The notes under the pieces: generated by a model
What the model saw: only the letters and a program-made list of their open reading frames with translations
What the model was told of the DNA's origin: nothing
The model's database searches: none
In this document: piece by piece, positions 2,859-43,335 of the stretch
Layout of the letters: every line of letters starts with the position of its first letter
Numbering within the stretch: position 1 is the stretch's first letter
From: an uncultured Kiritimatiellota bacterium
Lineage (GTDB): Bacteria > Verrucomicrobiota > Kiritimatiellia > RFP12 > UBA1067
Assembly: GCA_934643865.1 (NCBI GenBank)
Contig: CAKUCX010000014.1
Coordinates: 2,538 to 66,537 of the forward strand
DNA length: 64,000 bases
Direction of reading: 5' to 3'
Made by a program: the position numbers and the translations under genes

Positions 2859-4493
2859 TTACTTGCTTCCACCCGCAACGGCTTCGCTGAGCCTCTTCAG
2901 ATAGACGTCCAGCGGTCCCCTGTAGCCGATGATCGTCTCGATCTCCGTCTCGCCGTCCGGCTCCAGGATTTTGACGGCCGGCACGCCGCCGCCAAAGCCG
3001 AGGATTTCACGAACCTCGTCGTTCTGGCTCTTCTGGTCGGGCGGCAGAGACGTCTTCCGCGGATCGTCGAGATAGACGAGCACGAGGTTCTGGCGGGCGT
3101 AGCGCTGGAATTTGCTCGACTCCAGCACCTCCCGGCGCAGCCGGATGCAGAACCCGCACCAGTCGCTTCCCGTGTTCAGGACGAACAGCTTCTTCTTCGT
3201 CTTCTGTGCCTCGGCGACGGCCTTCTCCCAGTTCACGAACCAAAAGCGGTTCGGCCCCTTCTTCCAGCGGCGGTCGTTGACGGGCGGCTTCGGCTTGTCC
3301 GCCTTCGCGTCGGCCTCCTTCCCCTCAGCCTCCACGTCCTTCGCCTCCTTCCCGTCTTCGTCGTCCCCCACGCCGACGCCCTTCTCGCCCTTCGCGAAGA
3401 ACCGCACATTGACGTTCGCCTCGCCACCGTCCCACCCGTATCCGTCGGGATCGTCGTCAAGTTCGGGCTCGGTCTGTATCGAAATCTGAACGGCCTTCAA
3501 GTCGCACGTCTTTCCCCGTTCCAACAGGGAGATGAAGGGCTGGAGGACGCCCTTCCCGCGCAGGAGCGAACACGCGCTATGACAAAATGACATGCTTTTG
3601 TCGTATCGTTCGCTGTCATCCCATCCCCACTTGGGGCGAACCCAGATCCGCGCCTCATAGCCTTTCGGGATCTCGTATTCCATCCGAAAGAACACCCGCT
3701 TTCCAAAGGGAACCGTCTGCGGCGTGTCAAGGGGACGGAATTGCCGCGTCTTCAGCTTCTCCGAAGACATCGCCTCCGCAACCGCGATGCCCGTCACGGA
3801 TGCCTTGAAGTCCTCCCGCGTGACGGGCGGAAGTTTGGCCCGTTCCGCCGCAATGGCCGCTGCTGCGGCGGCGTAGCCGGATGCAAAGAGCAGGCGCGTC
3901 TTCTCCTGCCCAGAGGTCTCGCCCCGCTTCGCGCAGATTTCCCTCAGCCGCGCCACGTATTCCGAAACCGTCTGCCCGCCGCCGCCGATCTGCCCCAGCC
4001 GCCGCCCCTGCGCGGTGAAGACCGCCGTGCTGGGGACGCCCCCCGAAAGCTGCAACACCTTCTTGAGCAGCTTGTTGTGTACCTTCTGCGCCGCGCCGAG
4101 CGGATCCCGGTTCGGGCTGTCCAGATAGACGAGGACGAGGTTCGTGCGGGCGAAGTCCAGGAACTGCGGCTTTTCAAGCACGTTCTCGCGCAACTTAATG
4201 CACCAGTGGCACCAGTCGCTCCCCGTACTCAACACGAACAACTTCTTCTTGGTCCGCTTCGCCTCGGCAAGCGCCTTGTCCCAGTTGACGAACCAGTCCT
4301 CGGACGGCCCCGGTCGCCAGTCTACGTCGTCAAGGGGGTCTGTGGCGGAAGCGGGTTCGGCCTGCGTGATAGGCTTCGCATTCCCGCTTGCCCGCGCCGA
4401 CCTACTCGATGTACTCGCCGCCCGGGCCATGTGTCCTGTTCCAGCGGCAATTCCTGCCAAAACAAACATGAGAATCAGCTTCTTGTTCACCAT
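2859..4493 (-). CDS. Secreted protein with two thioredoxin-fold (Thioredoxin_7/DUF255-like) domains
   Basis: The start is ATG at 4493 (MVNKKLILMFVLAGIAAGTG, signal peptide) with a GAAAGG SD 7 nt upstream. There are two CxxC modules with near-identical context: KKKLFVLSTGSDWCHWCIKLRENVLE and KKKLFVLNTGSDWCGFCIRLRREVLE. The track ORF 2859..5528 extends its N-terminus through the repeat array, and that extension is not coding. Confidence 0.85.
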   Translation of the reverse strand: MVNKKLILMFVLAGIAAGTGHMARAASTSSRSARASGNAKPITQAEPASATDPLDDVDWRPGPSEDWFVNWDKALAEAKRTKKKLFVLSTGSDWCHWCIKLRENVLEKPQFLDFARTNLVLVYLDSPNRDPLGAAQKVHNKLLKKVLQLSGGVPSTAVFTAQGRRLGQIGGGGQTVSEYVARLREICAKRGETSGQEKTRLLFASGYAAAAAAIAAERAKLPPVTREDFKASVTGIAVAEAMSSEKLKTRQFRPLDTPQTVPFGKRVFFRMEYEIPKGYEARIWVRPKWGWDDSERYDKSMSFCHSACSLLRGKGVLQPFISLLERGKTCDLKAVQISIQTEPELDDDPDGYGWDGGEANVNVRFFAKGEKGVGVGDDEDGKEAKDVEAEGKEADAKADKPKPPVNDRRWKKGPNRFWFVNWEKAVAEAQKTKKKLFVLNTGSDWCGFCIRLRREVLESSKFQRYARQNLVLVYLDDPRKTSLPPDQKSQNDEVREILGFGGGVPAVKILEPDGETEIETIIGYRGPLDVYLKRLSEAVAGGSK

Positions 4494-4655
4494 TACGTAG
4501 CCTTTCTGGAAAACACCTCGTTTTTTCCTTATTTCCTTATCAGGTAATAAGGCGTCGTCAAGCTCCCGTTCTGACACGTCGTGCATAAAAATCCACACAC
4601 GTCTTATTGTTCTGGAAAGGATTAAACGGAAGGGACGTTTCCGGGATTGTACCGC
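4494..4655 (-). promoter_or_regulatory. AT-richer leader/promoter region of the thioredoxin-like gene
   Basis: Local AT enrichment stands out from the GC-rich surroundings. A -10-like GGTACAAT lies on the minus strand (4646..4653). An inverted repeat CCTTAT-caggta-ATAAGG lies at 4535..4552. The 12-mer ATAAAAATCCAC (4585..4596) is also present at 43308..43319. Confidence 0.35.
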
Positions 4656-5530
4656 CTGGTAGGGCGCGACGTCCCCGGCGCGCCGCGCCAACGGGAACGC
4701 CACGGGGACGCCAACGGAGACGCCACGGGGACGCGGGCCGCCGAGGACGTCGGCCCCTACCATGCCCCACCACCGCGTCATCTGGTAGGGCGCGACGTCC
4801 CCGGCGCGCCGCGTCCACGGGGACGTCACAGGGACGCGGGCCGCCGGGGACGTCGGCCGCGTTGCCCCCGTGCGCGTCATCTGGTAGGGCGCGACATCCC
4901 CGGCGCGCCGCGACAACGGGAACGCCACGGGGACGCCAACGGAGACGCCACGGGGACGCGGGCCGCCGAGGACGTCGGCCCCTACCATGCCCCACCACCG
5001 CGTCATCTGGTAGGGCGCGACGTCCCCGGCGCGCCGCGTCCACGGGGACGTCACAGGGACGCGGGCCGCCGGGGACGTCGGCCGCGTTGCCCCCGTGCGC
5101 GTCATCTGGTAGGGCGCGACATCCCCGGCGCGCCGCGACAACGGGAACGCCACGGGGACGCCAACGGAGACGCCACGGGGACGCGGGCCGCCGAGGACGT
5201 CGGCCCCTACCATGCCCCACCACCGCGTCATCTGGTAGGGCGCGACGTCCCCGGCGCGCCGCGCCCACGGGAACGTCACGGGGACGCCAACGGGAACGCC
5301 ACGGGGACGCGGGCCGCCGAGGACGTCGGCCCCTACCATGCCCCACCACCGCGTCACCTGGTCGGGCGCGACGTCCCCGGCGCGCCGCGCCCACGGGAAC
5401 GCCACGGGAACGCCAACGGGCACGCGGGCCGCCGAGGACGCCAACGGGGACGCCCACGGGAACGCCAACGGGAACGCCACGGGAATGCCACGGGGACGCG
5501 GGCCGCCGGGGACGTCGGCCCCTCCCACGG
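4656..5530. repeat. Tandem array of REP-like composite units (126-bp unit A and 99-bp unit B)
   Basis: CTGGTAGGGCGCGAC unit starts lie at 4656, 4782, 4881, 5007, 5106, 5232 and 5358, giving the order A-B-A-B-A-A-degenerate. Segment 4782..5006 is repeated exactly at 5007..5231 by eye. Each unit carries two imperfectly complementary 27-nt arms centred on GACGTC. Confidence 0.9.
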
Positions 5531-9317: not shown

Positions 9318-12300
9318 TCAGAACAGCACTTCGAGGTCGCAGACGCCGGAGAGGTCTTCACCCACGGCGTCCACGTAGGCGGAGTCGCCGATGCGCGAGA
9401 CCGTGAACGCCCGCGCTTCGCCGTTCACGCGGAGGGCGCGCGCCGTCTTCCCCTGCGGCAGGAGGAGGTGCGCCGCCACGCGCCGCGCGGGCGAGCGGAG
9501 GAGGTAGCGCAGGCCGTTCGCGCGCAGGACGTACTGGCAGTCCACGACCGCGCCCGACACCTCGTAGCCCGTGAAGTAGCGCACCTGCGTGTAGTCCGTG
9601 ACGGGCCAGCGCGGCGAGAAGCGGATCGCGTCGTACGTGACGCCCGCGTCCACGATGCCCGCAAGGCCCTCGTCCACGGCCGAGAGGAGGCTCGCCGCGC
9701 CCCACGCGCTCGGGCCGCGCCCCTGCGGCTTCCGGTCCTGCGCGCCGTAGAGGAAATAGACGCCGCCGTCGCGCGCGGCCATCTCCTTCACGCGCACGAG
9801 AATGTCCCAGCCGTAGGCTTCGTAGCCGTTCTCGAACGCCGCCTTGGCGAGCTCGCCCGCCGTGAACGGGCACACGGCGCCGTTCACGTACTCGCCCTTC
9901 GGGTGGCGGCCGAAGGCGGGCGTGTAGGGCGGATCGACCGTGAACCACTCGGCGAAGCAGTCCGTCGTCCGGCGGCGCGCGCGGTATTCCTCGATGGTCT
10001 TGCGGCAGTCGGCGACCGGCATGAGGCCGCGGTTCATGTCGTAGGCGGCGGAGAGCGAAAGGCGTTCGCGCTCGTGCGCGTCGACGGGCGGCACGTTGAG
10101 CGGCAGCTGGTGGAAGAAGAAGCGGCCGTTCCAGAGGTGCTTGTACATCGCCGCCTTGAGGGCGTCCGCCCGCGCGCGCCAGGCGGCCGCCTTCGCCGTG
10201 CGCCCGAGGCGGCCGTTCAACCACGCGAGCTGCGCCATCGCCTGGTAGACGCCGGAGTTGTCGCCGTGCATGATCGCCTGGGGCGTCGCGGCCGTGAGGA
10301 CGCGGTTCGTGGAAGAGGCGGGGTCGAAGGTGAAGTCCCACGTGTCGATCGTGTAGCCGCGCTTCACGAGGCCGTGCGCGGCGTCCCAGCGCTTCGGGTC
10401 GGAGGTCATGTAGTCGATCGCCTTTTCGAGGCGCGGGAGGGCGCGCGCGAGCCAGGCGTCGTCGCCCGTCGCCTTGTAGCGGTAGGTGGCGCCCTCCACG
10501 ACGAGGTACTCCACGTCCGCCTCGATCTCCAGGCGGACGAGGGCCATGTAGTCGGGCGGGTAGAACCGCACGCAGTCGGACGGCACGAAGCTCCAGTGGC
10601 GGTCGTCGAGCTGCTTGACGAGCTCGTAGAACTGCCCGTCCGCGCGCTGCGTGTCGAGGATGAAGTCGAGGAAGCTCGTGAGGTCGTACCCCCAGTGCCG
10701 CTGGGCCTTCATGATGTGGACGTGGTCGCGGATCCAGTTGAGGTTGCACGCGAGCTTGCGCCCGTCCACGAAGACGAGCTGCCGCCCCGCGTCGATCGTG
10801 CCGCGCAGCGTCTTCATGAAGTCCCCGAGCGCCGTGTCGCGCGTCGTCACGACGCCGGGGATCGCGAGCTCCACGTTGTTGTAGGACCCGCACCGGGGAC
10901 GCGCCCCCAGCGTGGAGCGCTGGCGCGGCAGCTGTTCGGGGAATGTCACCAGCCGCCCTTCGTTGAGCCCGTTCCCCGGCCAGAGCGGCGGCGGCGGCGG
11001 CGCGCGCGCGAGCGGCGCGAGCGCGGGCGCACCGCGCGGCGCGGCGAACGCGCGCAGGTCGTAGGGCGCGAGCGTGGCAAGGCCGCCTTGCACGGCCGCG
11101 CCGGAGACGAGGTCGTGCGTGCCGGGCGGCACGCGCAGGTCGAGCGTGGCCGCCTCGCCGCCCGTGTTCGCCACGTAGAAGTAGGAGCGTCCGTCGAAGT
11201 CCGCCTGCCGCGCCACGACGTTCCCCTCGCGCGCCGTCTCCGCCATCCGCACGGCGGGCAGCGCGCGGAACGCGGCGGCGAACCGCCGCAGGTCGTCCTC
11301 CATCCCGTAGGTGCCGACGAGGTAGCCGCCCTTCGAGACGCCCAGCACGTCGTCGAAGCGCAGCGGCAGCACGGACTCGCGCAGGGCGTGGCGTCCGGAC
11401 GGGTTGAGCGTCGTCACGCGCCAGCCCATCTCCGCGAAGCCGTCGCCGTTGAGCGGATTCCCCTTGGCGCGCCCGACGGGGTTCTCCCAGTAGAGGTCGA
11501 ACTGGTTGAGCCACGGGAAGCGCGCCCCCCGGGTGAGCGCGAAGAAGCCGGGGCGCGTCTGGAGGACGCGGTTGAATTGGTAGGCCGCGTCGCTCGGGAA
11601 GAGGGACCGCTCGCGCTTGCGGCAGAAGGCGGGGAACTGCGACTGGCAGAGGACGAGGTTCGGGATCGCGGCGAGGGCGGCGCGGTCGAGCCCGCCTTCG
11701 CGCGCCTGGCGCGTCATGAAGCCGTCCTCCATGAAGTCGGGCTGCTTCATGTCGGGCTGCACGTAGCAGTTCAGCCAGAGCTTGAGGTCGCCGCGGCGCG
11801 CGCGCAGCTTCGCCGCGAGGCGCGCGTAGAACGCCGTCACCCGGTCGCAGCGCCACTGCACCCACGGTTCATAGGCGTGGGCGCGGATCCACTTCGCCAC
11901 GGCGCGCCCGCGCAGGGGGTCCGTCTTGTCGAGCGGCACCTTCACGCCCGTCTCGCGCGCGAACGCCTCCACCGTGTAGTCGTTGTAGCCGCTGCGGATG
12001 TCGCCGAACCAGCAGAGCGAGAGCATGGTGAGGTGCAGGCACACGCCCTTGAAGCTCGGGTGGGGCGCGCCCTGCTCCACGAGCGCGTCGACGAGCCCCT
12101 CCAGGTAGGCCCGCGTCTCGGGATGGTGGAAGTTGAAGTTGGGCGGCGAATTGTGGAAGCCGTAGGTGTTGGGGAGGCCCGTGTCGAGGATCGCGACGGG
12201 CGTCGCGTGGAGCGCGCCGTTCGTGACGGCCTCGGCGGTGACGACGCCGGGGGGCAGGGGCATCGTGTTCGGGTTCACGTTCGGCACGAGGGAGAGGCCG

Positions 12301-13925
12301 GCCTTGTCGAACTTCACGTACCAGGCGGAGAGGAAGTCCGGCGCGTGCGCGCGGGGGTTGTAGCCCGTAGCGCCGATGAGGCCGTGGTACCACGCGCCGG
12401 GGTAGGAGAGGAGGTCCTGCCCGCAGTACTTCATGTAGGCGACCGTACGGTCGATCAGGTCCGAGATCTGGTGCGCGCCGTGCCCGCCTGTCGCGAAGTC
12501 GCAGCCGATCGAGGGATCCTCCCACCAGCTGCCGAAGGAGCGGCGCCAGCCGTCCGCCGGCTTCGGGGCGTTCACCTCCAGCGCGGGGAGGCGCGCGTTC
12601 TTCACCTCGTAGACGCGCAGCGCGCTCAGGGCGGCGGGCACGTCCGCGCGCGCCGTCAGCGCGACCGCCGCGAGCGCGCCCCGGCCGGGCGTCGTCCAAT
12701 AGAGGCAGCGGTGCGTCAGGGTCCTGCCCGTGTTCGGGTATTCGTCCCCGGTGAAGTAACCCACCTGGAGGGCGTAGTCGTCCGAATGCGGCTCGCGGAA
12801 CTGCACGATCAGGTCGCACGTGCGCGTCGCGTCGTCCGGGTAGTCGAACTCCAGGCAATAGAGCTTGACGGCGGGATCGACGTCGAAGAAGAACGCGAAG
12901 CGGTCGTCGCGCCGCGCGCCGGCCTCGACGTAGGGGACGCCGCCCAGCGCGCCGAAGCGGAGCGCCCCCACCGAGCGGAAGCGCTTCTCGGCCTGCCACT
13001 TCGCCACCGACGCGGCGTCGAAGCGGTATTCGGCCCGGAGCGCGAGGTCGAGCCGGTCGCCGCCCACGTAGGGGTTCGGGCCGTCCCCGGCGAAAAGCTT
13101 CGCGTAGTCCGGCTTGTCCGGCGACGGCGCCGCCCGGTCGGCGTGGGCCGCGAAGAGGGCCCGGACCCCGGCGTCGTCAAGCGCGCCGTCGTAGACGCGG
13201 ACGTCGTCAATGAGCCCGTCCACCTGCTGCCGGTCGCCAAGGCAGCCCACGAAGAAGCGCGTGAAGTCCTTCCGGTCGAAGAGGAACGGGATGCGGCCGC
13301 GCGCGGGATCCTTCCGCCGCTCCGCCGCGAGGCGCAGCGCCGCCGCCACCTCGCTGTGGCCGTCGGCGCGGGCGGGGCCGCAGGGGACGCCGTTGCGGTA
13401 GAGGCGCGCGTGCTTCGCCGCCTCGTCCCACGTAAACGCGAGATGCTCCCACCGGCCGTCCGGCGAGGGAACGCCGTCGCGGACGAGGTGCGTGTGGCCG
13501 AAGTCCGTCAGGTCCGCCCGCAGCCGATCCCCCCACCACCAGAGCGACAGCGCGCCCGAACCGAACCGCCCGCACGGCTCGGGGAAGGAGAAGAGCCTGC
13601 GCCACGCCTCCTTCGCCCCCGGCGCGGCGGGCGGTCCATCGCGCCGCGCCCAGAGCGAAACGGTGCCCTTCTCAGGCCGCACGTTGCCCTTGAGCGCGTA
13701 CTGGAGGACGCTCTTCGCCGCCGCCGTGAGCCGCACGGCCTGGCCGTCCACGCCCGGTTCGAACGAAAGCCCCCGCGCGACCTGCGGCGCGGCCGCCCCC
13801 TTCGCCACGGCGGCGACCGCCGTGCCGTCGAACGGCGCGTGGAAGATGAGCGCCGGCGCGCCGTGTGCCGCAACCATCATGAGCGCCGCCGCGCCCGCCA
13901 GGCTAAAACAGAATCTCGATGTCAT
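9318..13925 (-). CDS. Giant secreted multidomain glycosidase-like protein: N-terminal LamG-like domain, central unassigned domain, C-terminal six-hairpin-like domain
   Basis: MTSRFCFSLAGAAALMMVAAHG is a signal peptide (ATG at 13925; an alternative ATG lies at 13958). The LamG-type segment ends in GLIDDVRVYDGALD. The C-terminal ~570 aa are paralogous to the whole of 13903..15636. The gene overlaps the stop of the upstream gene by 23 nt. Confidence 0.8.
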   Translation of the reverse strand: MTSRFCFSLAGAAALMMVAAHGAPALIFHAPFDGTAVAAVAKGAAAPQVARGLSFEPGVDGQAVRLTAAAKSVLQYALKGNVRPEKGTVSLWARRDGPPAAPGAKEAWRRLFSFPEPCGRFGSGALSLWWWGDRLRADLTDFGHTHLVRDGVPSPDGRWEHLAFTWDEAAKHARLYRNGVPCGPARADGHSEVAAALRLAAERRKDPARGRIPFLFDRKDFTRFFVGCLGDRQQVDGLIDDVRVYDGALDDAGVRALFAAHADRAAPSPDKPDYAKLFAGDGPNPYVGGDRLDLALRAEYRFDAASVAKWQAEKRFRSVGALRFGALGGVPYVEAGARRDDRFAFFFDVDPAVKLYCLEFDYPDDATRTCDLIVQFREPHSDDYALQVGYFTGDEYPNTGRTLTHRCLYWTTPGRGALAAVALTARADVPAALSALRVYEVKNARLPALEVNAPKPADGWRRSFGSWWEDPSIGCDFATGGHGAHQISDLIDRTVAYMKYCGQDLLSYPGAWYHGLIGATGYNPRAHAPDFLSAWYVKFDKAGLSLVPNVNPNTMPLPPGVVTAEAVTNGALHATPVAILDTGLPNTYGFHNSPPNFNFHHPETRAYLEGLVDALVEQGAPHPSFKGVCLHLTMLSLCWFGDIRSGYNDYTVEAFARETGVKVPLDKTDPLRGRAVAKWIRAHAYEPWVQWRCDRVTAFYARLAAKLRARRGDLKLWLNCYVQPDMKQPDFMEDGFMTRQAREGGLDRAALAAIPNLVLCQSQFPAFCRKRERSLFPSDAAYQFNRVLQTRPGFFALTRGARFPWLNQFDLYWENPVGRAKGNPLNGDGFAEMGWRVTTLNPSGRHALRESVLPLRFDDVLGVSKGGYLVGTYGMEDDLRRFAAAFRALPAVRMAETAREGNVVARQADFDGRSYFYVANTGGEAATLDLRVPPGTHDLVSGAAVQGGLATLAPYDLRAFAAPRGAPALAPLARAPPPPPLWPGNGLNEGRLVTFPEQLPRQRSTLGARPRCGSYNNVELAIPGVVTTRDTALGDFMKTLRGTIDAGRQLVFVDGRKLACNLNWIRDHVHIMKAQRHWGYDLTSFLDFILDTQRADGQFYELVKQLDDRHWSFVPSDCVRFYPPDYMALVRLEIEADVEYLVVEGATYRYKATGDDAWLARALPRLEKAIDYMTSDPKRWDAAHGLVKRGYTIDTWDFTFDPASSTNRVLTAATPQAIMHGDNSGVYQAMAQLAWLNGRLGRTAKAAAWRARADALKAAMYKHLWNGRFFFHQLPLNVPPVDAHERERLSLSAAYDMNRGLMPVADCRKTIEEYRARRRTTDCFAEWFTVDPPYTPAFGRHPKGEYVNGAVCPFTAGELAKAAFENGYEAYGWDILVRVKEMAARDGGVYFLYGAQDRKPQGRGPSAWGAASLLSAVDEGLAGIVDAGVTYDAIRFSPRWPVTDYTQVRYFTGYEVSGAVVDCQYVLRANGLRYLLRSPARRVAAHLLLPQGKTARALRVNGEARAFTVSRIGDSAYVDAVGEDLSGVCDLEVLF

Positions 13926-15636
13926 ACGTCCCCGTCCCTTCCGTTTCGAAGTCCACATACCGCGAATCGCCCACCGCCGTTGTCTCGAACGCGCGCGGCG
14001 CGCCGTTCAGCCACACCTCCCGCGCCGCCGCGCCGGACGGCAGGAGGATGTGCGCCGCCAACGCCTTCGCGGGCGCGCGCACGAGGTAGCGCAGACCGTT
14101 CGCGCGCCGCACGTAGCGCACGTCGACGACGGCGTCCGCCGCCTCGTAGCCCGTGAAGTACCGCACCTCGTCGAGACCCGTCACGGGCCAGCGCGGCGAG
14201 AAGCGGATCGCGTCGTACCGCACGCCCACGTCGCGCACACCCGCCAGCGCCTCGTCGAAGGCGCTGAGGACGCTCGCCGCGCCCCAGGCGCTCGGGCCCA
14301 ATGCGGCGTTGATCGACGTCGCCGTCGTGCGGTCGTAGAGGAAGTAGAGCGTGCCGTCGCGCGCGGCCATCTCCTTCACGCGCACGAGAATGTCCCAGCC
14401 GTACGCTTCGTAGCCGTTTTCAAGGGCGGCCTTCGCGAGCTCGCCCGCCGTGAAGAGGCACACGCCGCCGTTCACGTAGTCGCCGCGCGGGTGGCGGGCG
14501 AAGGTGAAGTCGTAGGGCGGATCGACCGTGAACCACTCGGCGAAGCAGTCCGTCGTCTGACGGCGGCGCCTGAACTCCTCGATGGTCTTGCGGCAGTCGG
14601 CGACCGGCATGAGGCCGCGGTTCATGTCGTAGGCGGCGGAAAGCGAGAGGCGTTCGCGCTCGTGCGCGTCGACGGGCGGCACGTTGAGCGGCAGCTGGTG
14701 GAAGAAGAAGCGGCCGTTCCAGAGGTGCTTGTACATCGCAGCCCTGAGGGCGTCCGCCCGCGCGCGCCAGGCGGCCGCCTTCGCCGTGCGCCCGAGGCGG
14801 CCGTTCAGCCACGCGAGCTGCGCCATCGCCTGGTAGACGCCGGAGTTGTCGCCGTGCATGATCGCCTGGGGCGTCGCGGCCGTCAACGTGCGGTTCGTCA
14901 CGGAGGCGGGCTCATAGGTGAAGTCCCACGTGTCGATCGTGTAGCCGCGCTTCACGAGGCCGTGCCGGGCGTCCCAGCGCTTCGGGTCTGAGGTCACGTA
15001 GTCGATCGCCTTTTCGAGGCGCGGGAGGGCGCGCGCAAGCCAGGCGTCGTCGCCCGAGATCCGGTAGCAGTACGTCGCGCCCTCGACGAGCAGATACTCC
15101 ACGTCGGCCTCGATGTCGAGGCGGCACATGGCGAGGTTGTCGTCCGGGAAGAACTTCCGGCTCTCGGGCGCGGCGTAGCGCCAGTGGCGGTCGTCCGCCT
15201 GCTTGACGAGTTCGAGGATGCAGCCGTCCGCGCGCTGGTGCCGGAGCGTGAAGTCCACGTACCCCGCATAGTCGTATTCCCAGTGGCGCATGGCCTTCAG
15301 CACGTGGACATGGTCGCGGATCCAGTTCTTGTTCACCATCATCTTGCGCCCGTCCACGAAGACGAGGGACCGTTCGCCGTTGATCGTGTTGCGCAGCAGG
15401 TGGAGGAAGTCGCCCCAGGTCGGGTCGCCCGTCGTGAGGACGCCCGGCATCGCGAGGTCTTTGTTGTTGAAGCGTCCACAGGTCTTCCCCGTCCGCGCCT
15501 CCCGCATGCGCGGCAGGGCCTGGGTGAACGCCACGCGCCGCCCCTCGTTGAGCGAATACCCCTCCAGAAACGGCGCCGCCGCCGCGCCCGCGGCAAGCAC
15601 AGCGCACGCCGCCATCGTCCAGCCTCGTCCCGTCAT
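13903..15636 (-). CDS. Secreted six-hairpin ((alpha/alpha)6)-like glycosidase candidate
   Basis: The 577-aa protein has a signal-like N-terminus and a GGAAAGGGAGAAG SD upstream of the ATG at 15636. It is paralogous to the C-terminus of 9318..13925, and both end in D(L/I)E(V/I)LF. The fold and family assignment is a guess from composition and length only. Confidence 0.75.
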   Translation of the reverse strand: MTGRGWTMAACAVLAAGAAAAPFLEGYSLNEGRRVAFTQALPRMREARTGKTCGRFNNKDLAMPGVLTTGDPTWGDFLHLLRNTINGERSLVFVDGRKMMVNKNWIRDHVHVLKAMRHWEYDYAGYVDFTLRHQRADGCILELVKQADDRHWRYAAPESRKFFPDDNLAMCRLDIEADVEYLLVEGATYCYRISGDDAWLARALPRLEKAIDYVTSDPKRWDARHGLVKRGYTIDTWDFTYEPASVTNRTLTAATPQAIMHGDNSGVYQAMAQLAWLNGRLGRTAKAAAWRARADALRAAMYKHLWNGRFFFHQLPLNVPPVDAHERERLSLSAAYDMNRGLMPVADCRKTIEEFRRRRQTTDCFAEWFTVDPPYDFTFARHPRGDYVNGGVCLFTAGELAKAALENGYEAYGWDILVRVKEMAARDGTLYFLYDRTTATSINAALGPSAWGAASVLSAFDEALAGVRDVGVRYDAIRFSPRWPVTGLDEVRYFTGYEAADAVVDVRYVRRANGLRYLVRAPAKALAAHILLPSGAAAREVWLNGAPRAFETTAVGDSRYVDFETEGTGTYDIEILF

Positions 15637-15654: not shown

Positions 15655-18600
15655 TTAGCGTACAAGCAGCAGCGTGCCGCGCGGGCGCGCGAAGAGGGCG
15701 CCCGGCCCCGTGATGAACGGGCACGTCGCCGCGTCGAGGACGCCCGCATGGAAGCGCCCCGCGTAGCGCACCGTCCGCACCTCGTTCGTCACCGGGGCGT
15801 CGAGCGCCAGCGAGGCCCCTTCGTCCACGTCGATGTCGAGGTCCTTCGGCAGCGTCGGCGCGGCCGCCCGCGCGACCTTCTCCACCACGATGCCGTCCAA
15901 CAGACCGCCACAGGAGAAATACCGGGTACTGCCCGCGATCTTCTGCACGGACTCCTTCAGTCCGCTGAACCCAATCACCCCTTTCCCCGCCTCCGGCACC
16001 TCGAAGAGGAACGCATGGCGCACCCACCGCTCGCGCGTGTCGGGCGCGAACCGCCCGATCTCGTTCGTCACGCCCCCGCGCGCATACCACGCCCGGAACT
16101 CCTGTCCGCCGAACAGGTTCAGCTCCTCCGGTCTGCCGTTGTAGCGGTAGAACCGGTCGATCGCCGCCACGCTCAGGCGGTAGGTCCCCGCCTCGGGGAA
16201 CGTGACCGTGCGTGCGAGCGTGGCGCGGTTGCGCACGCCCACGCAGTGGCGGTCGTCGTAGTCGACGTCGCACCAGGCGCCGGGGATCCGATCCTCCCGC
16301 TGGCCCTCCACCAGGCCGGCGCCGTCGTGGATTTCGCTCGGCTCGCCGACGCACGTCCAGTCCGCCAACGCGCCCTCCCGCGTAAACGTCTCGTCCAGCA
16401 CCGCAGCCGTGTCCAGCGCCTCCAGCCGCACGTCGTCAAGCGCGACGAGCGAACCGCCGCCCGCGAACGCCAGCTCCACGGCCGCGTTGTCCGCCGCGAC
16501 CTGTACCGTGAAGGCATACCGCCTCGTCCAATCCGTCGTCCGCACCGTGCCGCAGGAGGCCCCGTTCCAGAAGACCCCGATCTCCGCCCGGGTGTTCGTC
16601 GTGCGGGCATCCGCCGCCGTCGAGGCCGCCGCGAAGGAGAGCCGGTACGCGCCCGCGCGCGCCACCCGGACCGTCTGGGCGATCCGCGCCGTGCCGTGCA
16701 GGACCAGATGGCGGCAACCCTCCGCCGGGCGCAGCGCCGTCTCCCGTCCGTTTCCGATCCGCTCCACCACCACGGCGTCCGCCGCGCCCGCCGTCTCGCA
16801 CGCCCAGCCGCCGAGCGATGCCGGGTTCTCAAGGTACGTCCGCCCAAAGGCATACGACGCCGACTCGAAGCTCGGGTTCGCGAGCGTCACGTCCGCCGTC
16901 CCGGCCTCCAGCCAGTCCACGCGGAAGTCGTCCACCAGCGCGACCGTGTTGCCGGGGATCACCGTGCTGTCGCCGCCGGTCGCGTCACGGTAGGCCTTGC
17001 TGTTGTTCGCGTCGCTCCGCAGGGTGAGCGTGTGGACACCCGCCGCGAGCCACGGGAGGCGGAACGCGCAGGGTTGCCACGCCTTCTCCCGGGTCTGGAC
17101 CTGTGCGACCTCCTCGCCGTCGATCAGGATGTGCGTCTCGTGCCCGACGTAGCCGGGACGCTGCGCGATCCAGAAGGAGAGGCGGTAGACGCCGTCCGCC
17201 GGGAGCGTGAGTGCCGTCTCCAGCCCGCCCCGGATGTGGAGCACGCCGCAGTAGACGCCGTCCGGGTAGCGCTGCCCCGGCACGTTGTAGTAGTAGTGCG
17301 CCGCAGGGTCGTCCGTCCAGCGCGTGACCTTTCCGTCCTCCGTCGATCCCTCCAGCCGCACGCTGCGCCAGCCATGCGTCGGCGCGTCGGGCTTCAGGCT
17401 TCGGTCCGTGTCCGGCTTGATGCCCGCATCCGCGAACGCCTCGAACGAAGGATCCTCGATGGCCCCCACGAGGTTCGTGGGGAAGGCCGATGCGCCGAAC
17501 GCACGCGGGGCGAAGCGGAGCGTCCCCTCCCGGACGGCAAGATGCGCGACGTCCGGCGCGAGCGCGTCAACCGCAAGCGTCCCCGTCCCCGTCTTCACGA
17601 CCGTTCCCGCCGGGGCCTCGGCGGCGGCGACCACCCCCGTGGCGGACGCCGCCAGCGTCGTCCCCGCCAGCGCCTCGAACGCCACGGGCTGGGCGCCGTC
17701 GAAGGAGCCGCCCGCCAGCGCGACGCGCGGCGTCTCGCGGCTTTCCGAGCCGTCCAGCGTGGCGAGCGTCCAGTCCCCGTCGCCCGTCTTCAGCACCCGC
17801 CCCGCGCCGGCCGTCGCGAGGGAGAGGGCCGCGCCGCGCGTCCCCCACTTGCGCTGCAGGTAGGCCGTCACGGCCACGCGGTTCGATTCGTCGAGCGGCG
17901 AGGCGAAGAGGATCACCTCGCACAGGCGCCCGCCGCCCTGGCGGTAGCCGTCGTTGTCGTTGGCGATCGCGTTGTACGAGAAAAGGCCCTCCACGTGCCA
18001 GCCGTCGCGCCCGGGCGTGATGTCCAGCAGCTGGTAGCCGCCGTTGGGCCCTGAGACGGACGGATCAACGGGCCGCCCGTCCACGCGGAACAGGCCCGAC
18101 GCCAACGTGCGCCACCCGCCCGCCGGCTGGAGGAAGGCCGTCGGCAGCGTCCCCTCCGCCAGCGTCTTGTAGCTCTTCGGCACAAACACCGCATGGTGCG
18201 AACCGGGATTGAAGACAAAGCCGTAGCCCCCGTCCTGCGTCCCCAGAACGGCGAACGCCTGCCGCACGCCGCCCACGGCGAACCCCGACCCGTCGGCGGC
18301 GGCGAAGCGGACGTTGCGCCCGCTCGAATACCTCCCGAAGTCAACGTAAGCGCACGCGCCGCCCGACGCGGGGACGTAGCGGGGGAACCACCCTTCTGGG
18401 TCGGGCGCGTAGGCGGCGGAGTGGGCGAGGTTCGTGAACGCGACGGCGCGCGGACGCACATACGGGTTCGCCGCCGAGCCGTCCCCCGTCTCGCGCGCGT
18501 CGAGCCACGTCCCCACGGTCCCCGCCACCCCGTCGGCGGGAAGGATCGTCGCGGGGCGGGCGGCGTCGAGCCAGAGGGCCGCCGCGTCGAGAGCGGCGGG

Positions 18601-25360: not shown

Positions 25361-27868
25361 TCACCGAAGCGACACGGGGCCGTAGAGCCCGCAGGGGTCA
25401 AGCGCGTCGTTCGCGGAATAGCCCGCCGTGATCTGCGGGAAGCCCCACGCGCCGCGCGCGTCGTTGTGCGGCCCCGCCTTGTACGCGAGGCAGCTCTTCG
25501 TGACGCGCCGCTCGGGCGGCACGAGGCAGTCGCCGATGAGACGGTTGCGCCACGTGTTCGTGACGCGCACCTCCAGCTCGTTCGCGCCGGTCCTGAGCGC
25601 CGCCGCCGGCACCTTCGCGTACCACGGCGCGCACCAGACGACGCCGCACGCGACGCCGTTCACGAAGACCTCCGCGACGCCCCCCTCCACGTGGCCGAGC
25701 ATGAGGAGGCGGTCGCCCGTCACGGCGTCGAGCGAAAACGCCGTGCGGTAATGCGCCGTGCCCGAGAAGTGGCGGATCTCGGCGTCGTCGCTCTTCGTCC
25801 AGTCGCCGAGGCGCGGGAACGGACGCCCGCCGACGTCGATCGACCAGGGGCCGTCGAGCGCGCGTCCGCCCGTGAGCGGCACATGCCGCATGACGGGCGG
25901 CGTCTCCGGCCGCCCCCGGGCCGGAAGGTCCGACGTCGGGCGGAAGACGACGAAGATCGACCCGTCGCGCGCGAAGGCGAGCGGCACCTTCGTGCGCCCG
26001 TCGGCCGTCGCCGCCGCCTCCGTTGCCCGGCGGCGGTTGCCCGTGACGGGGTCCCAGAGCTCGCACACCTTGCCCGCGACGCGGAACGTCACGCTGCCGC
26101 GCCCCGTGCCGGAGGTCGTCACGAAGTAGATGTCCGTCCCGTCCGCCGTGCGGCGGTGGACGACGTCGTTGAAGTCGCCCTCGAAGTCGGGCGGCGGCAG
26201 CGGAGGCCACGCCGCGCCCGGCGCGGTCGCGTCGACGAAGGCCGCGTAGCGGCCCTTCAGGCCGAGCGTCTCGTCGTTCAGGATGTCGTAGTTGTAGCCG
26301 CGCGGGATCACCACGCGCGCCCCGTCCCACGGCACGTCGCGGTAGCGCCCCCAGTGGCGGTAGGGGGTGCTACCCGCGTACACGGCGAGGTCGACGACGG
26401 GCTTGCCCGCCTGCAGAAGCGTCTGGCACCGCGCGAGGTAGGCGATGAAGGCGTGCGCCGCGTGGTGCCACGTCACGTTGCGGTTGATGTGCGTCCCGGC
26501 GAAGTATTCGATGCCGGGCCGCCCGAACGCGGCGGGCGAGCAGGTGAACGTGTGCCACACGAAGTGGTTGATGCCGTCGACGAAGGCGTCGTCCGCACTC
26601 CGCTTGAGGCGGCTCGGCAGCATGTTCCAGTGGTAATCCATCGTCGTGAACGCCTCGGCCGACGCGCGCGGGAGGCCGTAGATGCGCGCGGCGTTCGCGG
26701 CGGCGACGTTGTGGGCGTGCCCCGCGTGGTGGGCGGGGGCGACGGGCCAGAACTCGCCTTGCGGCATGTCGTTGACGCCCAGGAACGCGAGCTGGTCCGC
26801 CTCGCGGAAGACGCTCGGGCTGCGGTTCCACGGGCCGCCGCTTTCCGAGTAGAGTTTGAGCCCGCGCGCGTGGGCAAGCCGCCGCACCGTCCCGTAGAAG
26901 TTCTCCCGGAAGAGGTCGTTGCGCACGCGGCGGAAGTCGCGCAGCAGCGCGTCCGCGCGCGCCGTCTCGGAGGGGGGGACGAAGCCCGCGAGAAGCGGCA
27001 GCTGCGGACGCAGCGCGTAGCCCGCGCGTGCGGCGAACGCGGCCTCCAGGGCGGGCGTCCACGTGGGGACCGCCCCTTCCCAGCTCACCGAGTAGACGTG
27101 CGTGAACGTCGTCCCCACGAGGGGACCGAGCGCCGCGCAGAGCGGGTCGAGGATGCGCGTCACGTGGCGCGCGACGGCGTCGGCGTCGATGACGTCCACG
27201 TCGAAGGGGCGCTTCGGGATCGCGCAATAGCCGAAGCGCAGGCGCACGGCGCGCCCGCCCGGCGTCCCCGCCGGGCACGTCGCGACGCGCGCCTCGCCGC
27301 GATCGCGCGCCCAGCGGTCCGTCACGCCGCCCGCGTCCCGCCAGCCCGCCTTCAGGGCCGTCCCCGCCGGCACGGTCACGGTGAGCGTGCAGATGTCGTG
27401 GTAGTTCTCGTAGTCGGCGGGGACGGCATCGACGTCGACACCGCACACGAGCCGCTTCGGCCCGTCCGGGCCCGTCTTCCACGGCCCCTTCAGCGACCCG
27501 CCGCAGTCGGAGAGGTTCATCGTAAAGGAAAGGCCGAGCCGCGCGCATTCGCGCACCGCGAAGGCGACCATCTCGTACCATGCGGGGCTCGCGAACGCAA
27601 GTTTCACCTCGGGCTTCCAGACGCGTGTGTCGTAGCCGCGCGGGTCGAGCAGCAGAAGGCCGCCGAAGCCCATCCTCTTCATGGCCTCCAGGTCGGCCGT
27701 CGCCGTCGCGCGGTCGACGTTGCCGTTCACCCAGTACCAGTAGCACCAGGGCCTTGCCGCGTCGGGCGGCGCCACGAAGTCTTCGTAGAGCCCGGCCTGC
27801 GCCGCCGAGGCCCACAGGCCCAGCGCCGCGACGCATCCGGCCCGCAGCGTCCGTCCCAGAACGCTCAC
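25361..27868 (-). CDS. Secreted glycoside hydrolase, GH106-like (alpha-L-rhamnosidase-type) candidate
   Basis: The GTG start at 27868 gives (M)SVLGRTLRAGCVAALGLWASAAQA as signal. The N-terminal motif ARPWCYWYWVNGNVDRATATADLEAMKRMGFGG matches my memory of the Glyco_hydro_106 entry motif. The C-terminal part has TNTWRNRLIGD. The family call is not verified by search. Confidence 0.7.
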   Translation of the reverse strand: MSVLGRTLRAGCVAALGLWASAAQAGLYEDFVAPPDAARPWCYWYWVNGNVDRATATADLEAMKRMGFGGLLLLDPRGYDTRVWKPEVKLAFASPAWYEMVAFAVRECARLGLSFTMNLSDCGGSLKGPWKTGPDGPKRLVCGVDVDAVPADYENYHDICTLTVTVPAGTALKAGWRDAGGVTDRWARDRGEARVATCPAGTPGGRAVRLRFGYCAIPKRPFDVDVIDADAVARHVTRILDPLCAALGPLVGTTFTHVYSVSWEGAVPTWTPALEAAFAARAGYALRPQLPLLAGFVPPSETARADALLRDFRRVRNDLFRENFYGTVRRLAHARGLKLYSESGGPWNRSPSVFREADQLAFLGVNDMPQGEFWPVAPAHHAGHAHNVAAANAARIYGLPRASAEAFTTMDYHWNMLPSRLKRSADDAFVDGINHFVWHTFTCSPAAFGRPGIEYFAGTHINRNVTWHHAAHAFIAYLARCQTLLQAGKPVVDLAVYAGSTPYRHWGRYRDVPWDGARVVIPRGYNYDILNDETLGLKGRYAAFVDATAPGAAWPPLPPPDFEGDFNDVVHRRTADGTDIYFVTTSGTGRGSVTFRVAGKVCELWDPVTGNRRRATEAAATADGRTKVPLAFARDGSIFVVFRPTSDLPARGRPETPPVMRHVPLTGGRALDGPWSIDVGGRPFPRLGDWTKSDDAEIRHFSGTAHYRTAFSLDAVTGDRLLMLGHVEGGVAEVFVNGVACGVVWCAPWYAKVPAAALRTGANELEVRVTNTWRNRLIGDCLVPPERRVTKSCLAYKAGPHNDARGAWGFPQITAGYSANDALDPCGLYGPVSLR

Positions 27869-28194
27869 CGCCGCGCCCCTTCCCCTTGCGGCACCGCGCC
27901 GTTCGCCGCGCGCGCCTTGCGCGCGTAGTGGAGGTAGAGCGCAAGGTCGGTCGAGACGAGCGCCATGTCGACGAGGTAGACGAAGCAAAGCCAGTCGTTG
28001 CCGGGATTTGCGTCGAGGAGCCGCGCGAGGATGCCCCCCACATAGCCGAGAAGGACGATGGTCATGAACATCGGGCTCTTGCCCGCCACGCCCTTCCCGC
28101 TGTGGCCGGACTTGTAGGTGCGCGCAATCGCGAACGGCCACGAGAAGCCGAAGGCGAAGAGCATGAAGAATTCGCAGAATTGGGAGATGTCCAT
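27865..28194 (-). CDS. Small 3-TM membrane protein, possibly PQ-loop/SemiSWEET-like
   Basis: The 109-aa protein MDISQFCEFFMLFAFGFSWPFAIARTYKSGHSGKGVAGKSPMFMTIVLLGYVGGILARLL... has three hydrophobic segments. Its TGA stop overlaps the GTG start of the downstream hydrolase (GTGA). Confidence 0.6.
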   Translation of the reverse strand: MDISQFCEFFMLFAFGFSWPFAIARTYKSGHSGKGVAGKSPMFMTIVLLGYVGGILARLLDANPGNDWLCFVYLVDMALVSTDLALYLHYARKARAANGAVPQGEGARR

Positions 28195-31866: not shown

Positions 31867-34800
31867 TCACTGCACAAGGACGTTCTCGGCGGCGGAGACG
31901 TTGAGCTTGCCGGCGCGGTCGGGGTTGTCCTTCGCGCGCGGGCCGAGTTCGACCACGTTGTTGCGCCAGACGACGTTGCGTCCGCAGGGGAGGTCCAGCA
32001 CGTACCCGCCCGGATTCACGAACCGGCACCCTTCGACGAGGAGCCCGCCGGCGACGAAGCCCTTGTCCACCTCGCCCACGTCCCAGTCCGTCGGCGTCAC
32101 GCACACGGCCGAGATGCAGGGATCCTTCGGGTTGGAGACGCACGTGTCCTCGAAGAGGCAGTTGCGCACGACGAGGTTCGTCGCGCCCATGCCCTCGCAC
32201 CAGAGGTCGCTGCGGTAGTCGGCGATGAAGCGCACGGGCACGCTGGCGGTCCGGCGGAAGATGCAGCCGTCGAGCGTGAGGTCGGAGGGCGAGAAGATGT
32301 TGCGCCAGCCGCCGTCCTCGAACACGCAGTCCTTCATCGTCACGCGGTCCGTCCCGTAGGCGCGGTCCCACACGAGGAAGCACGGCCCCTTCTGCGGGGG
32401 GATGTCGCGGTCGAGGTGGAGGCGGTTCCCGGCGACCCGGAGGAGCTTCGCGCGGAAGCCCGCCTCGCCGACCGGCGCGAAGTTCGGGAAGCGCAGCTCC
32501 AGGGTCGTCCCCGGCGCGGCGCGGAAGTAGTCGGCCCCGCGCCGGTTCACGATGTCGAGCACGCGGTCTGCCGCCCGCACGGCGATCGTGAAGCGGTCGT
32601 GGAAGTTCGACGTGTCGTCGTTGTTGAGCGACCAGCGGCAGTTGACGTACAGGCAGTCGCCCTTCGAGCGCGCGACGTGGTGGCCGTCCGAGACGGACGA
32701 GACGGGCCGGCTGAAGAAGCGCGCGCCGGGGTACGCCGCCCGGAACGCCGCCTCCGTCGGCGGCTCGACGCGGAAGTTCTCCACGCGCCAGTGGTGCTGC
32801 GCCCCGTCCACCACCATCCCCATGCCGAAGCAGCTCCACACGGCGACGTCCCGCACCGTGAGGTGCGCGTTGGCGTCGAGGTTGAGGCCGTTCTTCCCGT
32901 AGTAGCAGTGCTGGAGGCGGTAGAGGCCGTTCGTCTCGAACAGGCGCACGCGCGCGAGGTTCCCCTTCGCCGAGAAGCGGAAGCCCGTCGCGGGGTTCTG
33001 GTTGCGCCCCTCCATCGGGATGCCGGGCCAGAGGCGCAGGACGTTCGGCTTCACCCATGCGTTCTTCGCGCCGAAGTGCCCCTCGGTCTGGCCGAACGAG
33101 AGCCCCATCCCCCTGCGGAAGCGCGTGCGGCTTTCGTCCATCGCCGTGATCTTCTGGACGGGGACCGGCTCGGGGTACTTGGGGTGGCGTTCGTAGTCCA
33201 CGAACGCGAGGTCGACGAAGGCGCGTTCGGGCCGCGCGGCGTCCTCGTGGCGGCCGACGACGCGCACGAAGGCGGCGAGCGGATCCGCCTCCCAGTCCCA
33301 GTCCATCGTGAAGTTCCCCACCTCGGTCCTCGTGCAGCGCTGCACGAGGACGTTCCCCTTGTCGAGGATGAGTTCGCTCTGCGGCTGGCAGCGGTACTCG
33401 GCCGGGCGGCGGAAGACGAGGACGGCGCCCTTCCCGTCGAACGTGAAGTCCGTGAAATCGCGGATCACGATTCCCGGCTCGTCGAAGCAGCGGTAGGTGC
33501 CCGGCGCGAGTTCCAGACGGCTCGCCTTCACGCGGCGGCACGCCGCCAGCGCGCGGGCGATCGCCGCCGCGTTCGTGGTCGAGGCCGTGGACAGGCCGAA
33601 GTCCACCGCCTTCAGCGTCCGCCCGCCCGTGGCGCGCGGCCGCTCCACCACGACCTCCGGGCATCCCGTCGCGACGGGGACGGCGGCGGGGAGGCCGGAC
33701 GGCAGCAGCGTCTTCCGGTCTGGCCGGCCCGGCTCGGACACGAGCCGGAACGCCTCGGCCGTCTTCACCCAGCCGAAGTCGACGGGGGCGGACGGCGGGA
33801 AGAGGCGTTCCCAGAGGTTCGTGTCGGGGCACGCATACGGCGCGTAGGACCCGTCTGCGGCAAAGGTCCCCTGGCGGTAGCGGTTGTAGAACGCCGACGT
33901 GCCGAGGAGCCGGAGGCGCGCGTCGGCGTCCGCCGCGTCCGCCCCGGCGGGCGAGACGGCGACGTGCAGGACGCGCGGCCCCTTCACGCCCGGCGGACAG
34001 GCGAACGCCGTCTCCAGCGGCGCCGCGAGCGTCGTCTCGACGCGCTTCACGAGGATGGCCGCCTCCTTCGGACTGTACTCGCGGAAGAGCGGGTCCAGGA
34101 GCCAGTAGGTGACCGCGAAGCGGTTCGTCGGCAGCGTCTGCCCGGCGAGAAGCCTCCACGTCGTCGTCACGCGCCCGTCCCCGTGGTACGCCGTCTCGGG
34201 CGCGACGGGCAGGCGGTTGCGGGCCGTGTCGTCGCCGCGCGGGTTGACGTAGCGCACGACCTTCTTCCCCTCGGGATAGGCGGACTCCTCGACGACGCGC
34301 CCGCCCCGGCGGCGGATGGCCGCGTAACGCCCCGTCCGCGCGTTGAACGCCACGAAGCCGTACTGCGCGAGCGGCACCGCGCCCAGGGCCTCGTCCCCCG
34401 TCTCGCACGCCCAGTCGGCGACGCCCCGGTTCACGAAGACCTCCATGCCCGTCGACCACGAGACGTGCAGACGGCGCGGATCGCCGCCCGCGAACGAAAC
34501 GCGCGAGACGGTGGCCGTGCCGAGTTCGCGCGCGATATGCTGCGCCAGCCAGTACTTCCGCACGACCTGGCGGAGGCAGCGGTCCACGTCGAGCGGTTCG
34601 AGGAGGCCGGCCTCGGCCTTGTAGGCGTCGCGGTTGTAGCAGTCCGCCATGAGGGCGTGTCCGTTCAGGATCTCGCAGGAGAGGTAGTCGTCCGAATCGA
34701 TGCCGTGGCAGTCCGCCCCGCGCGCGCCCTCGAAGCGGGCGCTGTACCCGACGCCGTGGAGGGCCATGCGGTCGTGGTAGACGAGCGGGAACCAGGGCGT

Positions 34801-42961: not shown

Positions 42962-43040
42962 GCCATCATCTCCAAAACGCAGGGACTCTTCAGAAGCGTC
43001 CCCCTGCCCGGACACCGCCAGGGCGCGGGCATCCACACAA

Positions 43041-43212
43041 ACGCCTTGCACGCAGCCGCATGCAGGCCCCTTGCGCAAACGCCTTGCACGCAGCCGCATG
43101 CAGGCCCCTTGTACAAACGCCTTGCACGCAGCCACATGCAGGCCCCTTGCACAAACGCCTTGCACGCAGCCACATGCAGGCCCCTTGCACAAACGCCTTG
43201 CACGCAGCCACG
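43041..43212. repeat. 38-bp tandem repeat, about 4.5 copies
   Basis: The unit is ACGCCTTGCACGCAGCC(G/A)CATGCAGGCCCCTTG(C/T)(G/A)CAA, starting at 43041, 43079, 43117, 43155 and 43193. Each unit contains GCATGC and an 8-mer TTGCGCAA / TTGTACAA (palindromic) or TTGCACAA. Confidence 0.9.
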
Positions 43213-43263
43213 CCCGGACACTTTGTGCAGAAACCCTCACGCACCGAAGGCTCAACGCGTCCA

Positions 43264-43335
43264 AGATTCTACCATGTCTCCACCTGCGCGGACAACGTGA
43301 AAGAATTATAAAAATCCACCTAGACTTTCAAAATC
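43264..43335 (-). promoter_or_regulatory. Promoter plus conserved upstream block for the HzsA-like operon: TTGTCC-N18-(TGG)TAGAAT, with upstream TTGAAAGT-N11-TTTATAA
   Basis: The minus strand reads TTGAAAGTctaggtggattTTTATAAttctttcacgTTGTCCgcgcaggtggagacaTGGTAGAATCT. Hand alignment gives 51/72 ungapped identities to 47883..47954. Confidence 0.5.

Follow-up and report, generated by a model that had tools for sequence, protein, structure and literature searches.

A fixed C-terminal peptide on giant exported proteins of Kiritimatiellae: a candidate sorting or docking tag

Why do three very large exported proteins encoded in one stretch of a Kiritimatiellota genome end in nearly the same seven residues, each followed at once by a stop codon? 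The stretch in question, hereafter the window, comprises 64,000 nucleotides of contig CAKUCX010000014.1 from an uncultured Kiritimatiellota bacterium. The Kiritimatiellae, for the most part uncultured, abound in guts, rumens and sediments, where they degrade polysaccharides. Three genes of the window, all located on the minus strand and here named P1 (15655-18852), P2 (45034-47817) and P3 (61471->64000, truncated by the end of the window), translate to proteins whose last seven residues are GTLLLVR, GTLLVIR and GTVLLLR, respectively. The original prediction had proposed this ending as a candidate for an unrecognised sorting or anchoring tag borne by otherwise different secreted proteins. The analysis presented here revealed that the peptide closes an unannotated C-terminal domain of ~50-60 residues, the last ten residues of which are fixed in content and position, and the question of what such a tail is for is weighed below against the explanations that compete with a tag.

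An unannotated C-terminal domain with a fixed end

According to the translations, P1 is an exported protein of 1065 residues from a family of ~1100-residue proteins and ends in GPGALFARPRGTLLLVR, P2 is an exported protein of 927 residues ending in ENGRLFAWQAKGTLLVIR, and the window holds the C-terminal 842 residues of P3, a P1 paralog of 1145 residues that ends in GTGCLYVRPKGTVLLLR. The N-terminus of P3, placed beyond the window end, was found in the full-length gene carried by a public contig (L006:6500-9937), whose product starts with the signal-peptide-like MKTFFVLAACAAGLCGADIVV. The terminal peptide of P1, RPRGTLLLVR, occupies positions 15658-15687 and is followed by a TAA stop at 15655-15657, the segment 15655-15789 being made up of this stop and the 44 codons that precede it. 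The terminal peptide of P3, RPKGTVLLLR, lies at 61474-61503 and is followed by TAG, and that of P2, QAKGTLLVIR, forms the last ten residues of a short-form C-terminal element (RTVRVVYENGRLFAWQAKGTLLVIR) at 45037-45111, followed by TGA. In P1 and P3, a 66-position hidden Markov model (HMM) matched a longer C-terminal module that covers the last 65 residues of each protein, placed at 15658-15852 (L1001-R1065) and 61474-61668, respectively. The three open reading frames (ORFs) presented a coding-type composition, with a G+C fraction of 0.81-0.95 at third codon positions in a window of ~70% G+C.

Chance was the first explanation for which the window itself provided a measure. Its six frames contained 466 stop-to-stop ORFs of at least 60 residues, among which a loose version of the ending pattern retrieved a single further ORF, 3591-4547 on the plus strand, which ends in PYFLIR and is devoid of G-T. 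A matrix anchored at the C-terminus and built on the final ten positions of 134 independent family tails assigned 21.8 bits to P1, 25.5 bits to P3 and 19.2 bits to P2, and all other genes of the window scored -11 bits or less. None of 5,000,000 random tails drawn from the amino-acid composition of the window reached 19.2 bits, and the probability of attaining at least 10 bits under this null was ~4e-5. Based on the matrix scores relative to random tails, together with the ORF scan, a chance resemblance of the three ends is excluded. The ending composed of G-T, a hydrophobic run, R and a stop, as claimed by the original prediction, was therefore confirmed and lies far above chance.

The anatomy of the peptide was established from 142 tails taken from clusters sharing less than 50% identity, which yielded the consensus G-a-L-x-V-x-P-[KR]-G-T-h-h-h-h-R, h being a hydrophobic residue. 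Counting back from the C-terminus, the last position was R in 122 tails, K in 10 and F in one, positions -5 to -2 were hydrophobic in nearly all of them, T was found at -6 in 92, G at -7 in 127, K or R at -8 in 94 and P at -9 in 110. The chain stops directly after R/K in 93% of these tails. The peptide is also strictly terminal, as the matrix reached at least 8 bits at the terminus of 155 of the 174 tail proteins and at 46 of 205,409 internal positions, nearly all of the latter being the same site in orthologs that hardly differ in sequence.

When 1.84 billion representative proteins were queried with a profile made from the final 58 residues, it matched 383 clusters (at 50% identity) with E ≤ 0.001 and 61 with E ≤ 1e-10, and the match reached the last residue of the protein in nearly all of the 150 matches listed. 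A few matches presenting many internal partial alignments were leucine-rich-repeat-like and look spurious. Complete matches were mostly of 1040-1170 residues; those of ~1100 residues were homologous to P1/P3 over most of their length, and among the matches listed with at least 450 residues, all but one 488-residue sequence were homologous to P1 or P3. The 66-position HMM, an independent model, scored P1 at 75.9 bits, with the match extending to the last residue, and P3 at 82.7 bits. When an index of 5.8 billion proteins was queried with an alignment of the tail alone, 9 short fragments were retrieved, the word index seemingly not covering the tails of long proteins; full-length P1 retrieved from the same index, among the matches listed, variants of 98-99% identity and none that were distant.

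P1 consists of an N-terminal β-rich region and a LamG-like unit, a PATR-like stretch, three domains resembling jelly-rolls or carbohydrate-binding modules (CBMs) and the C-terminal module, and it produced matches to DUF642 and choice-of-anchor-C that lie below the cut-offs of Pfam and NCBIfam. In BLASTP comparisons, P1 and P3 shared 33% identity over the last 190 residues (E 9e-21) and 28% over the N-terminal 300 residues. The two proteins are homologous along their length, and therefore their common end reflects paralogy and not a tag placed on different cargo. The proposed difference in upstream content consequently did not survive for this pair. A curious relative of P3 was also observed, namely a public protein of 101 residues (P0002) in which the first 39 residues of P3, corresponding to the signal peptide and the start of the protein, are joined directly to the last 62, corresponding to the module; this protein stems either from a natural deletion or from an error of assembly.

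No Pfam or NCBIfam model matched at the protein ends, whether the whole proteins were searched against NCBIfam at E ≤ 0.1 or the isolated tails at E ≤ 10. Likewise, a search of the literature found nothing describing the tail, its proteins or such a signal in Kiritimatiellota or in the Planctomycetes-Verrucomicrobia-Chlamydiae (PVC) group.

The proteins that carry the tail

Is the tail found on anything other than the P1/P3 family? Within the window, P2 is the protein for which the claim of unrelated cargo stands. It has no Pfam domain, its BLAST similarity to P1 or P3 amounted to noise only, its comparison with the P1/P3 family profile by hhalign gave a probability of 6%, and searches of PDB returned no match. 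A hint from MAFFT that P2 holds the whole module was dropped because the 66-position HMM does not detect this protein (score of only 1.7); a weaker profile-profile link came later and is described below. The four repeats that had been attributed to P2 were not recovered by self-BLAST (E ≤ 1e-3), although inspection of the translation by eye shows a repeated motif. The exact gene call is present on public gut-metagenome contigs, and a metagenome scan retrieved four relatives that are 85-96% identical to P2, the 85%-identical orthologs ending in QATGTLLVFR.

Beyond the window, the scanning of GTDB species genomes with a narrow-pattern module alignment yielded 13 loci. The P1/P3 module was detected in Kiritimatiellae metagenome-assembled genomes (MAGs) from goat omasum, rumen and human gut, with three module loci in one goat-omasum MAG and two in another. 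The flanks of such loci encode other giants with the tail, such as L010, of 2184 residues, with a LamG_3 domain and ending in GRVTVRTAIGTAVILR; L017, of 1477 residues, with PATR and ending in GVWLRRATGGVIFIR; and L014, of 1034 residues, with no Pfam domain and ending in AFRIAGGGMTILFR. The full module was found in L016, of 2237 residues, which carries two FAD_oxidored domains and ends in KPRATMIILR. Among 118 candidate ORFs, the extra short-tail matches scored 9.9, 10.4 and 12.0 bits, which is far above expectation given the matrix null at 10 bits or more.

A search with L017 retrieved 71 relatives, only two of which bear a name, both being Kiritimatiellae, and these relatives form a PATR family of 1460-1620 residues in which members of 38-54% identity retain the tail. 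A fourth tail protein, an ortholog from the L017 family that ends in RAGTILTLR, was found in a metagenome of the ERZ2728xxxx run shared with two that bear the present locus, and possibly belongs to the same species as the source of the window. More distant giants also carry the tail (P0342, ending in MPKGTILTIR, and P0343, P0344, P0345 and P0346), and one further contig (L029:1-19939) contains four giant genes whose products, of 1579-1769 residues, all end in GT[VL]I[LR]LR. The latter contig was observed to carry, in order, the gene for the 1769-residue protein, an FGGY kinase gene, the tandem genes for the proteins of 1579, 1674 and 1620 residues, and an alpha-L-fucosidase gene. In P0342, a single ORF of 1884 residues (L026:10001-15655) runs from an ECF sigma factor and a FecR domain through a second signal-peptide-like hydrophobic segment into three LamG-like units and the tail. 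Because of this second segment, the ORF, although possibly a true fusion, may also consist of two genes that no stop codon separates, and it was discarded as evidence against secretion.

A signal-peptide-like start was recognised, by eye and by a crude heuristic, in 87 of the 97 complete tail proteins, in agreement with the earlier claim that the ending sits on signal-peptide proteins. Named tail records are mostly Kiritimatiellae or Kiritimatiellia, the exceptions being labelled Lentisphaerae, Clostridiales, uncultured bacterium or simply 'bacterium', and the domain is so far restricted to Kiritimatiellae, that is, to gut and rumen MAGs of this class of the PVC group. Three copies of the tail occur within the 64-kb window alone. 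Of the features by which sorting signals are generally recognised (Haft 2006), location at the extreme C-terminus, presence on signal-peptide proteins, occurrence of several copies per genome and restriction to a lineage are found in the present case. Since no known sorting-domain model matches the tail, and since it closes P2 and other Kiritimatiellae architectures, it is neither an instance of a signal already modelled in Pfam or NCBIfam nor limited to close paralogs. The original prediction of a common tag on different cargo is partly supported by P2 and these further architectures, and it is weakened by the fact that two of its three proteins belong to one family and that the diversity of the remaining cargo is modest.

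Docking tag or structural cap

The state of the tail in the folded protein was approached by structure prediction. AlphaFold2 (AF2) modelled full-length P1 from a 69-sequence alignment with a mean predicted local distance difference test score (pLDDT) of 85 and a predicted template modelling score of 0.83. A Foldseek search with this model retrieved proteins rich in jelly-rolls and CBMs, such as CBM22 tandems, the C-terminal halves of Cry protoxins, Vip3 and EngBF, which fits the weak matches to DUF642 and choice-of-anchor-C. In the model, the block of the module (pLDDT 89-97) contains short strands up to A1052-A1055 (ALFA), and the last ten residues were assigned as coil by DSSP, the last block having a pLDDT of 68. 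When the module was modelled alone (last 77 residues, 45 sequences), the pLDDT was 83.7, residues 68-77 were again coil and the last seven had a value of 72. Neither model pairs the hydrophobic end with another part of the monomer. The module has no sequence relative in PDB, and its model matched no PDB chain at E ≤ 0.001 by Foldseek (best E 3.1), for which small domains are hard targets.

The reading that the tail behaves like a sorting or docking tag on giant Kiritimatiellae exports is given a probability of roughly 0.42, since the stop placed right after the Arg, the lack of an internal motif, the presence on P2, the predicted unpaired state and the several copies per genome on signal-peptide proteins all fit a tag. 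The mechanism proposed would start with a domain that closes giant (~900-2200 residues) Sec-exported β-rich proteins assembled from LamG-like, PATR and CBM-like modules. The folded part of this domain would leave the final ~10 residues exposed as a free strand that is hydrophobic and has the terminal Arg and its carboxylate for a cap, and this strand would bind an envelope component in trans by β-strand addition. Such binding would retain the large glycan-binding proteins at the cell surface or hand them over there. The element would thus be a docking or sorting tail and not a membrane anchor, as 4-5 hydrophobic residues cannot span a membrane. It is a reasonable hypothesis that the tail would play a role in export, anchoring or processing, and both a targeting or anchoring function and a partner are putative.

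A purely structural explanation, tentative as well and nonetheless a serious possibility, is suggested by the narrow cargo, the lack of enzymes, the moderate conservation in the L017 family and the lack of an identified partner, and these same points weigh against a tag. According to this explanation, the peptide would be the last strand of a small C-terminal β domain that caps β-solenoid or β-sandwich giants and that common descent and domain shuffling have distributed among the members of one superfamily of Kiritimatiellae. The flanking P, K/R and G and the terminal R would be gatekeepers around an aggregation-prone strand, with no targeting role. With the last 60 residues removed, single-linkage BLAST clustering (E < 1e-6) joined 96-97 of 100 tail proteins through common LamG-like, PATR and CBM-like modules, so that cargo diversity is modest and descent plus domain shuffling explain much of the distribution of the tail; in addition, nearly all module-bearing proteins are full-length P1/P3 homologs. 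Only P2, L010 and L014 fell outside this cluster and remain unlinked to other tail proteins, L016 representing a different fusion. The long and short forms look homologous and would constitute a single C-terminal domain family of ~50 residues. The short-tail proteins have ~45-60 C-terminal residues in common, of the form …W-x-V-x-G…G-x-W-L…G-T-h4-R, and their alignment was matched by hhalign to the long P1/P3 module up to the last residue with a probability of 83% and an E-value of 8.8e-6, a link driven largely by the last ~10 columns that both alignments have in common.

Other points of the same kind concern the proteins that lack the tail and the strength of its conservation. Enzymes exported from the same loci do not carry the tail. 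In the window it is absent from the exported glycoside hydrolases and from other large exported proteins, examples of these two groups being encoded at 9318-13958, 13903-15636, 25361-28141, 31867-36147 and 58747-61407. The tail marks a structural class and not exported proteins in general. Known sorting tags usually have enzymes among their cargo. In the L017 family, conservation in the window of the last ten residues was 0.765, relative to a mean of 0.675, ranking 295 out of 1454 and hence only moderately above the rest of the protein. A coil predicted by AF2 at a pLDDT of ~70 is weak evidence for an unpaired strand, as AF2 can miss a terminal strand. Moreover, no partner, secretion system or processing enzyme was identified in the fetched loci.

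The structural explanation, in its turn, does not readily account for the exactness of the end, since ordinary terminal strands tolerate ragged ends, whereas almost all of the tails stop right after R/K, and since the motif hardly ever occurs inside a chain, PATR-rich proteins included. This is also relevant for the PATR repeat (PF12951), whose first strand, G-T-L-x-L, is present in the cargo itself and by eye resembles the K/R-G-T-h-h-h-h of the tail. However, the Pfam PATR model did not match tails of 79-88 residues at E ≤ 10, the tail matrix does not pick up PATR strands at internal positions, and the tail proteins have no autotransporter barrel. In addition, P2 bears the tail in spite of having no detectable homology elsewhere, and the two AF2 models, derived from alignments of 45-69 sequences, leave the strand unpaired. 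These observations weigh against a purely structural end. The most specific version of the tag, which must be considered less likely than not, is a Kiritimatiellota-specific sorting or retention signal that lacks a transmembrane helix and is composed of a ~50-residue carrier and a free P-[KR]-G-T-h4-R-COOH strand, in which an envelope component would read the C-terminus and so keep giant glycan-binding proteins at the surface or export them to it.

Could the tail be a reduced form of a signal already known? An improbable third explanation considers it a miniaturised or relic PEP-CTERM-type signal, either a vestige or a sequence still read by an exosortase-like enzyme or another transpeptidase or protease. 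PEP-CTERM is common on the large PATR-type proteins of PVC bacteria and, in other phyla of the group, comes after the final strand of comparable PATR proteins, a slot that the tail may occupy by analogy. Both elements form the extreme end of signal-peptide proteins in diderm bacteria, occur in several copies per genome and within a restricted lineage, and follow the order of a Pro-containing motif (here, the frequent P at -9), a hydrophobic run and a basic end. However, PEP-CTERM is defined by a PEP motif, a hydrophobic stretch of ~14 residues and a basic region of ~5 residues (PMC1569441), whereas the tail has P-[KR]-G in place of the PEP tripeptide, 4-5 hydrophobic residues and a single R/K, and is preceded by a folded domain of ~50 residues. 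The corresponding model, TIGR02595, did not match the tails even at E ≤ 10, no PEP-CTERM-like end was found by regular expression in ~460 kb of fetched loci, and no exosortase (EpsH) gene was seen in these loci, which are small samples. A vestige, furthermore, would not stay so conserved across families with less than 25% identity. The distinction from PEP-CTERM drawn by the original prediction was thereby upheld.

The same is largely true of the other systems from which the ending had been set apart. In contrast to the LPXTG signals processed by sortases, the tail presents no LPXTG motif, no transmembrane helix and no match to the respective HMM. As a separate candidate, a lipoprotein or transmembrane anchor was rejected on the grounds that the hydrophobic stretch is too short. 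The C-terminal domains of the type IX secretion system of Bacteroidota (T9SS; TIGR04183 and PF18962) resemble the module in being small β-rich domains that close otherwise different large exports of one lineage and are unrelated to the function of the cargo. However, the module is shorter (~50-60 versus ~70-100 residues), does not match these HMMs, has a narrower cargo, finds no similar solved fold by Foldseek and is defined by its invariant terminal peptide, and no T9SS is known in this lineage. Finally, it is highly improbable that the tail is an outer-membrane β-signal-like strand read by the β-barrel assembly machinery or the translocation and assembly module, or else a chance resemblance, given that the likeness to the β-signal, a C-terminal β-strand-like peptide with a conserved exact end and last residue, which suggests that the free C-terminus is recognised, is countered by a last residue that is R/K instead of aromatic (F in 1 of 142), by hydrophobic residues that are consecutive instead of alternating, and by cargo modelled as soluble multidomain jelly-roll proteins with no β-barrel predicted, and that chance is excluded by the ORF scan and the matrix null.

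Genomic setting and meaning for Kiritimatiellae

In the window, two MGH1-like glycosidase genes follow P1 after 18 nt and a GH106-like gene follows P3. Regulators combining Peripla_BP_3 and an AraC-type helix-turn-helix domain are encoded divergently on the plus strand upstream of P1 (19009-20211) and of P2 (47513-49141). More generally, tail genes often head glycoside-hydrolase operons or adjoin sugar-sensing AraC-type regulators, a context that would fit glycan-binding surface proteins of polysaccharide-utilisation loci. Kiritimatiella, the first cultured member, is diderm and its reported secretion pathways are only Sec, Tat and type II (PMC5148204).

Other features of the window were observed in passing. 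The adjacent MGH1-like genes downstream of P1 (9318-13958 and 13903-15636, both on the minus strand) have their own common ending, GVCDLEVLF and GTYDIEILF, respectively, marked by alternating hydrophobic residues and a terminal Phe. At positions 4656-5456, a 225-nt unit is repeated in tandem ~3.5 times at 84-99% identity, and 2591-2815 (within 2550-2834) contains a diverged copy of it. A sub-unit of 81 nt, rich in CACGGG[AG]ACGCC, is also present in nine copies. The array lies in the 5′ part of a thioredoxin-like ORF (2859-5528, minus strand) and translates to odd extensions of the type GIPVAFPLAFPWA...RWWGMVGADVLGGPRPRG. An exported Peptidase_C39-like protein (52772-54295, minus strand) is encoded between the genes for RNase R and an APH-type kinase, in an order conserved on public contigs, and no link between this protein and the tail was found. 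Lastly, this gut Kiritimatiellae genome encodes, at 39590-43264 on the minus strand, a large protein in which a PD40 repeat accompanies a hydrazine-synthase-alpha middle domain (PF18582, E 1.7e-34).

What does the tail mean for the bacteria that bear it? A short, invariant and strictly terminal peptide present on hundreds of giant proteins provides a handle for their annotation by means of an HMM. Even as a purely structural cap, the tail would mark out a domain family that is large (383 or more clusters at 50% identity) and so far unannotated. Were it to serve in sorting or docking, the known C-terminal signals would be joined by a type that works without a transmembrane segment.

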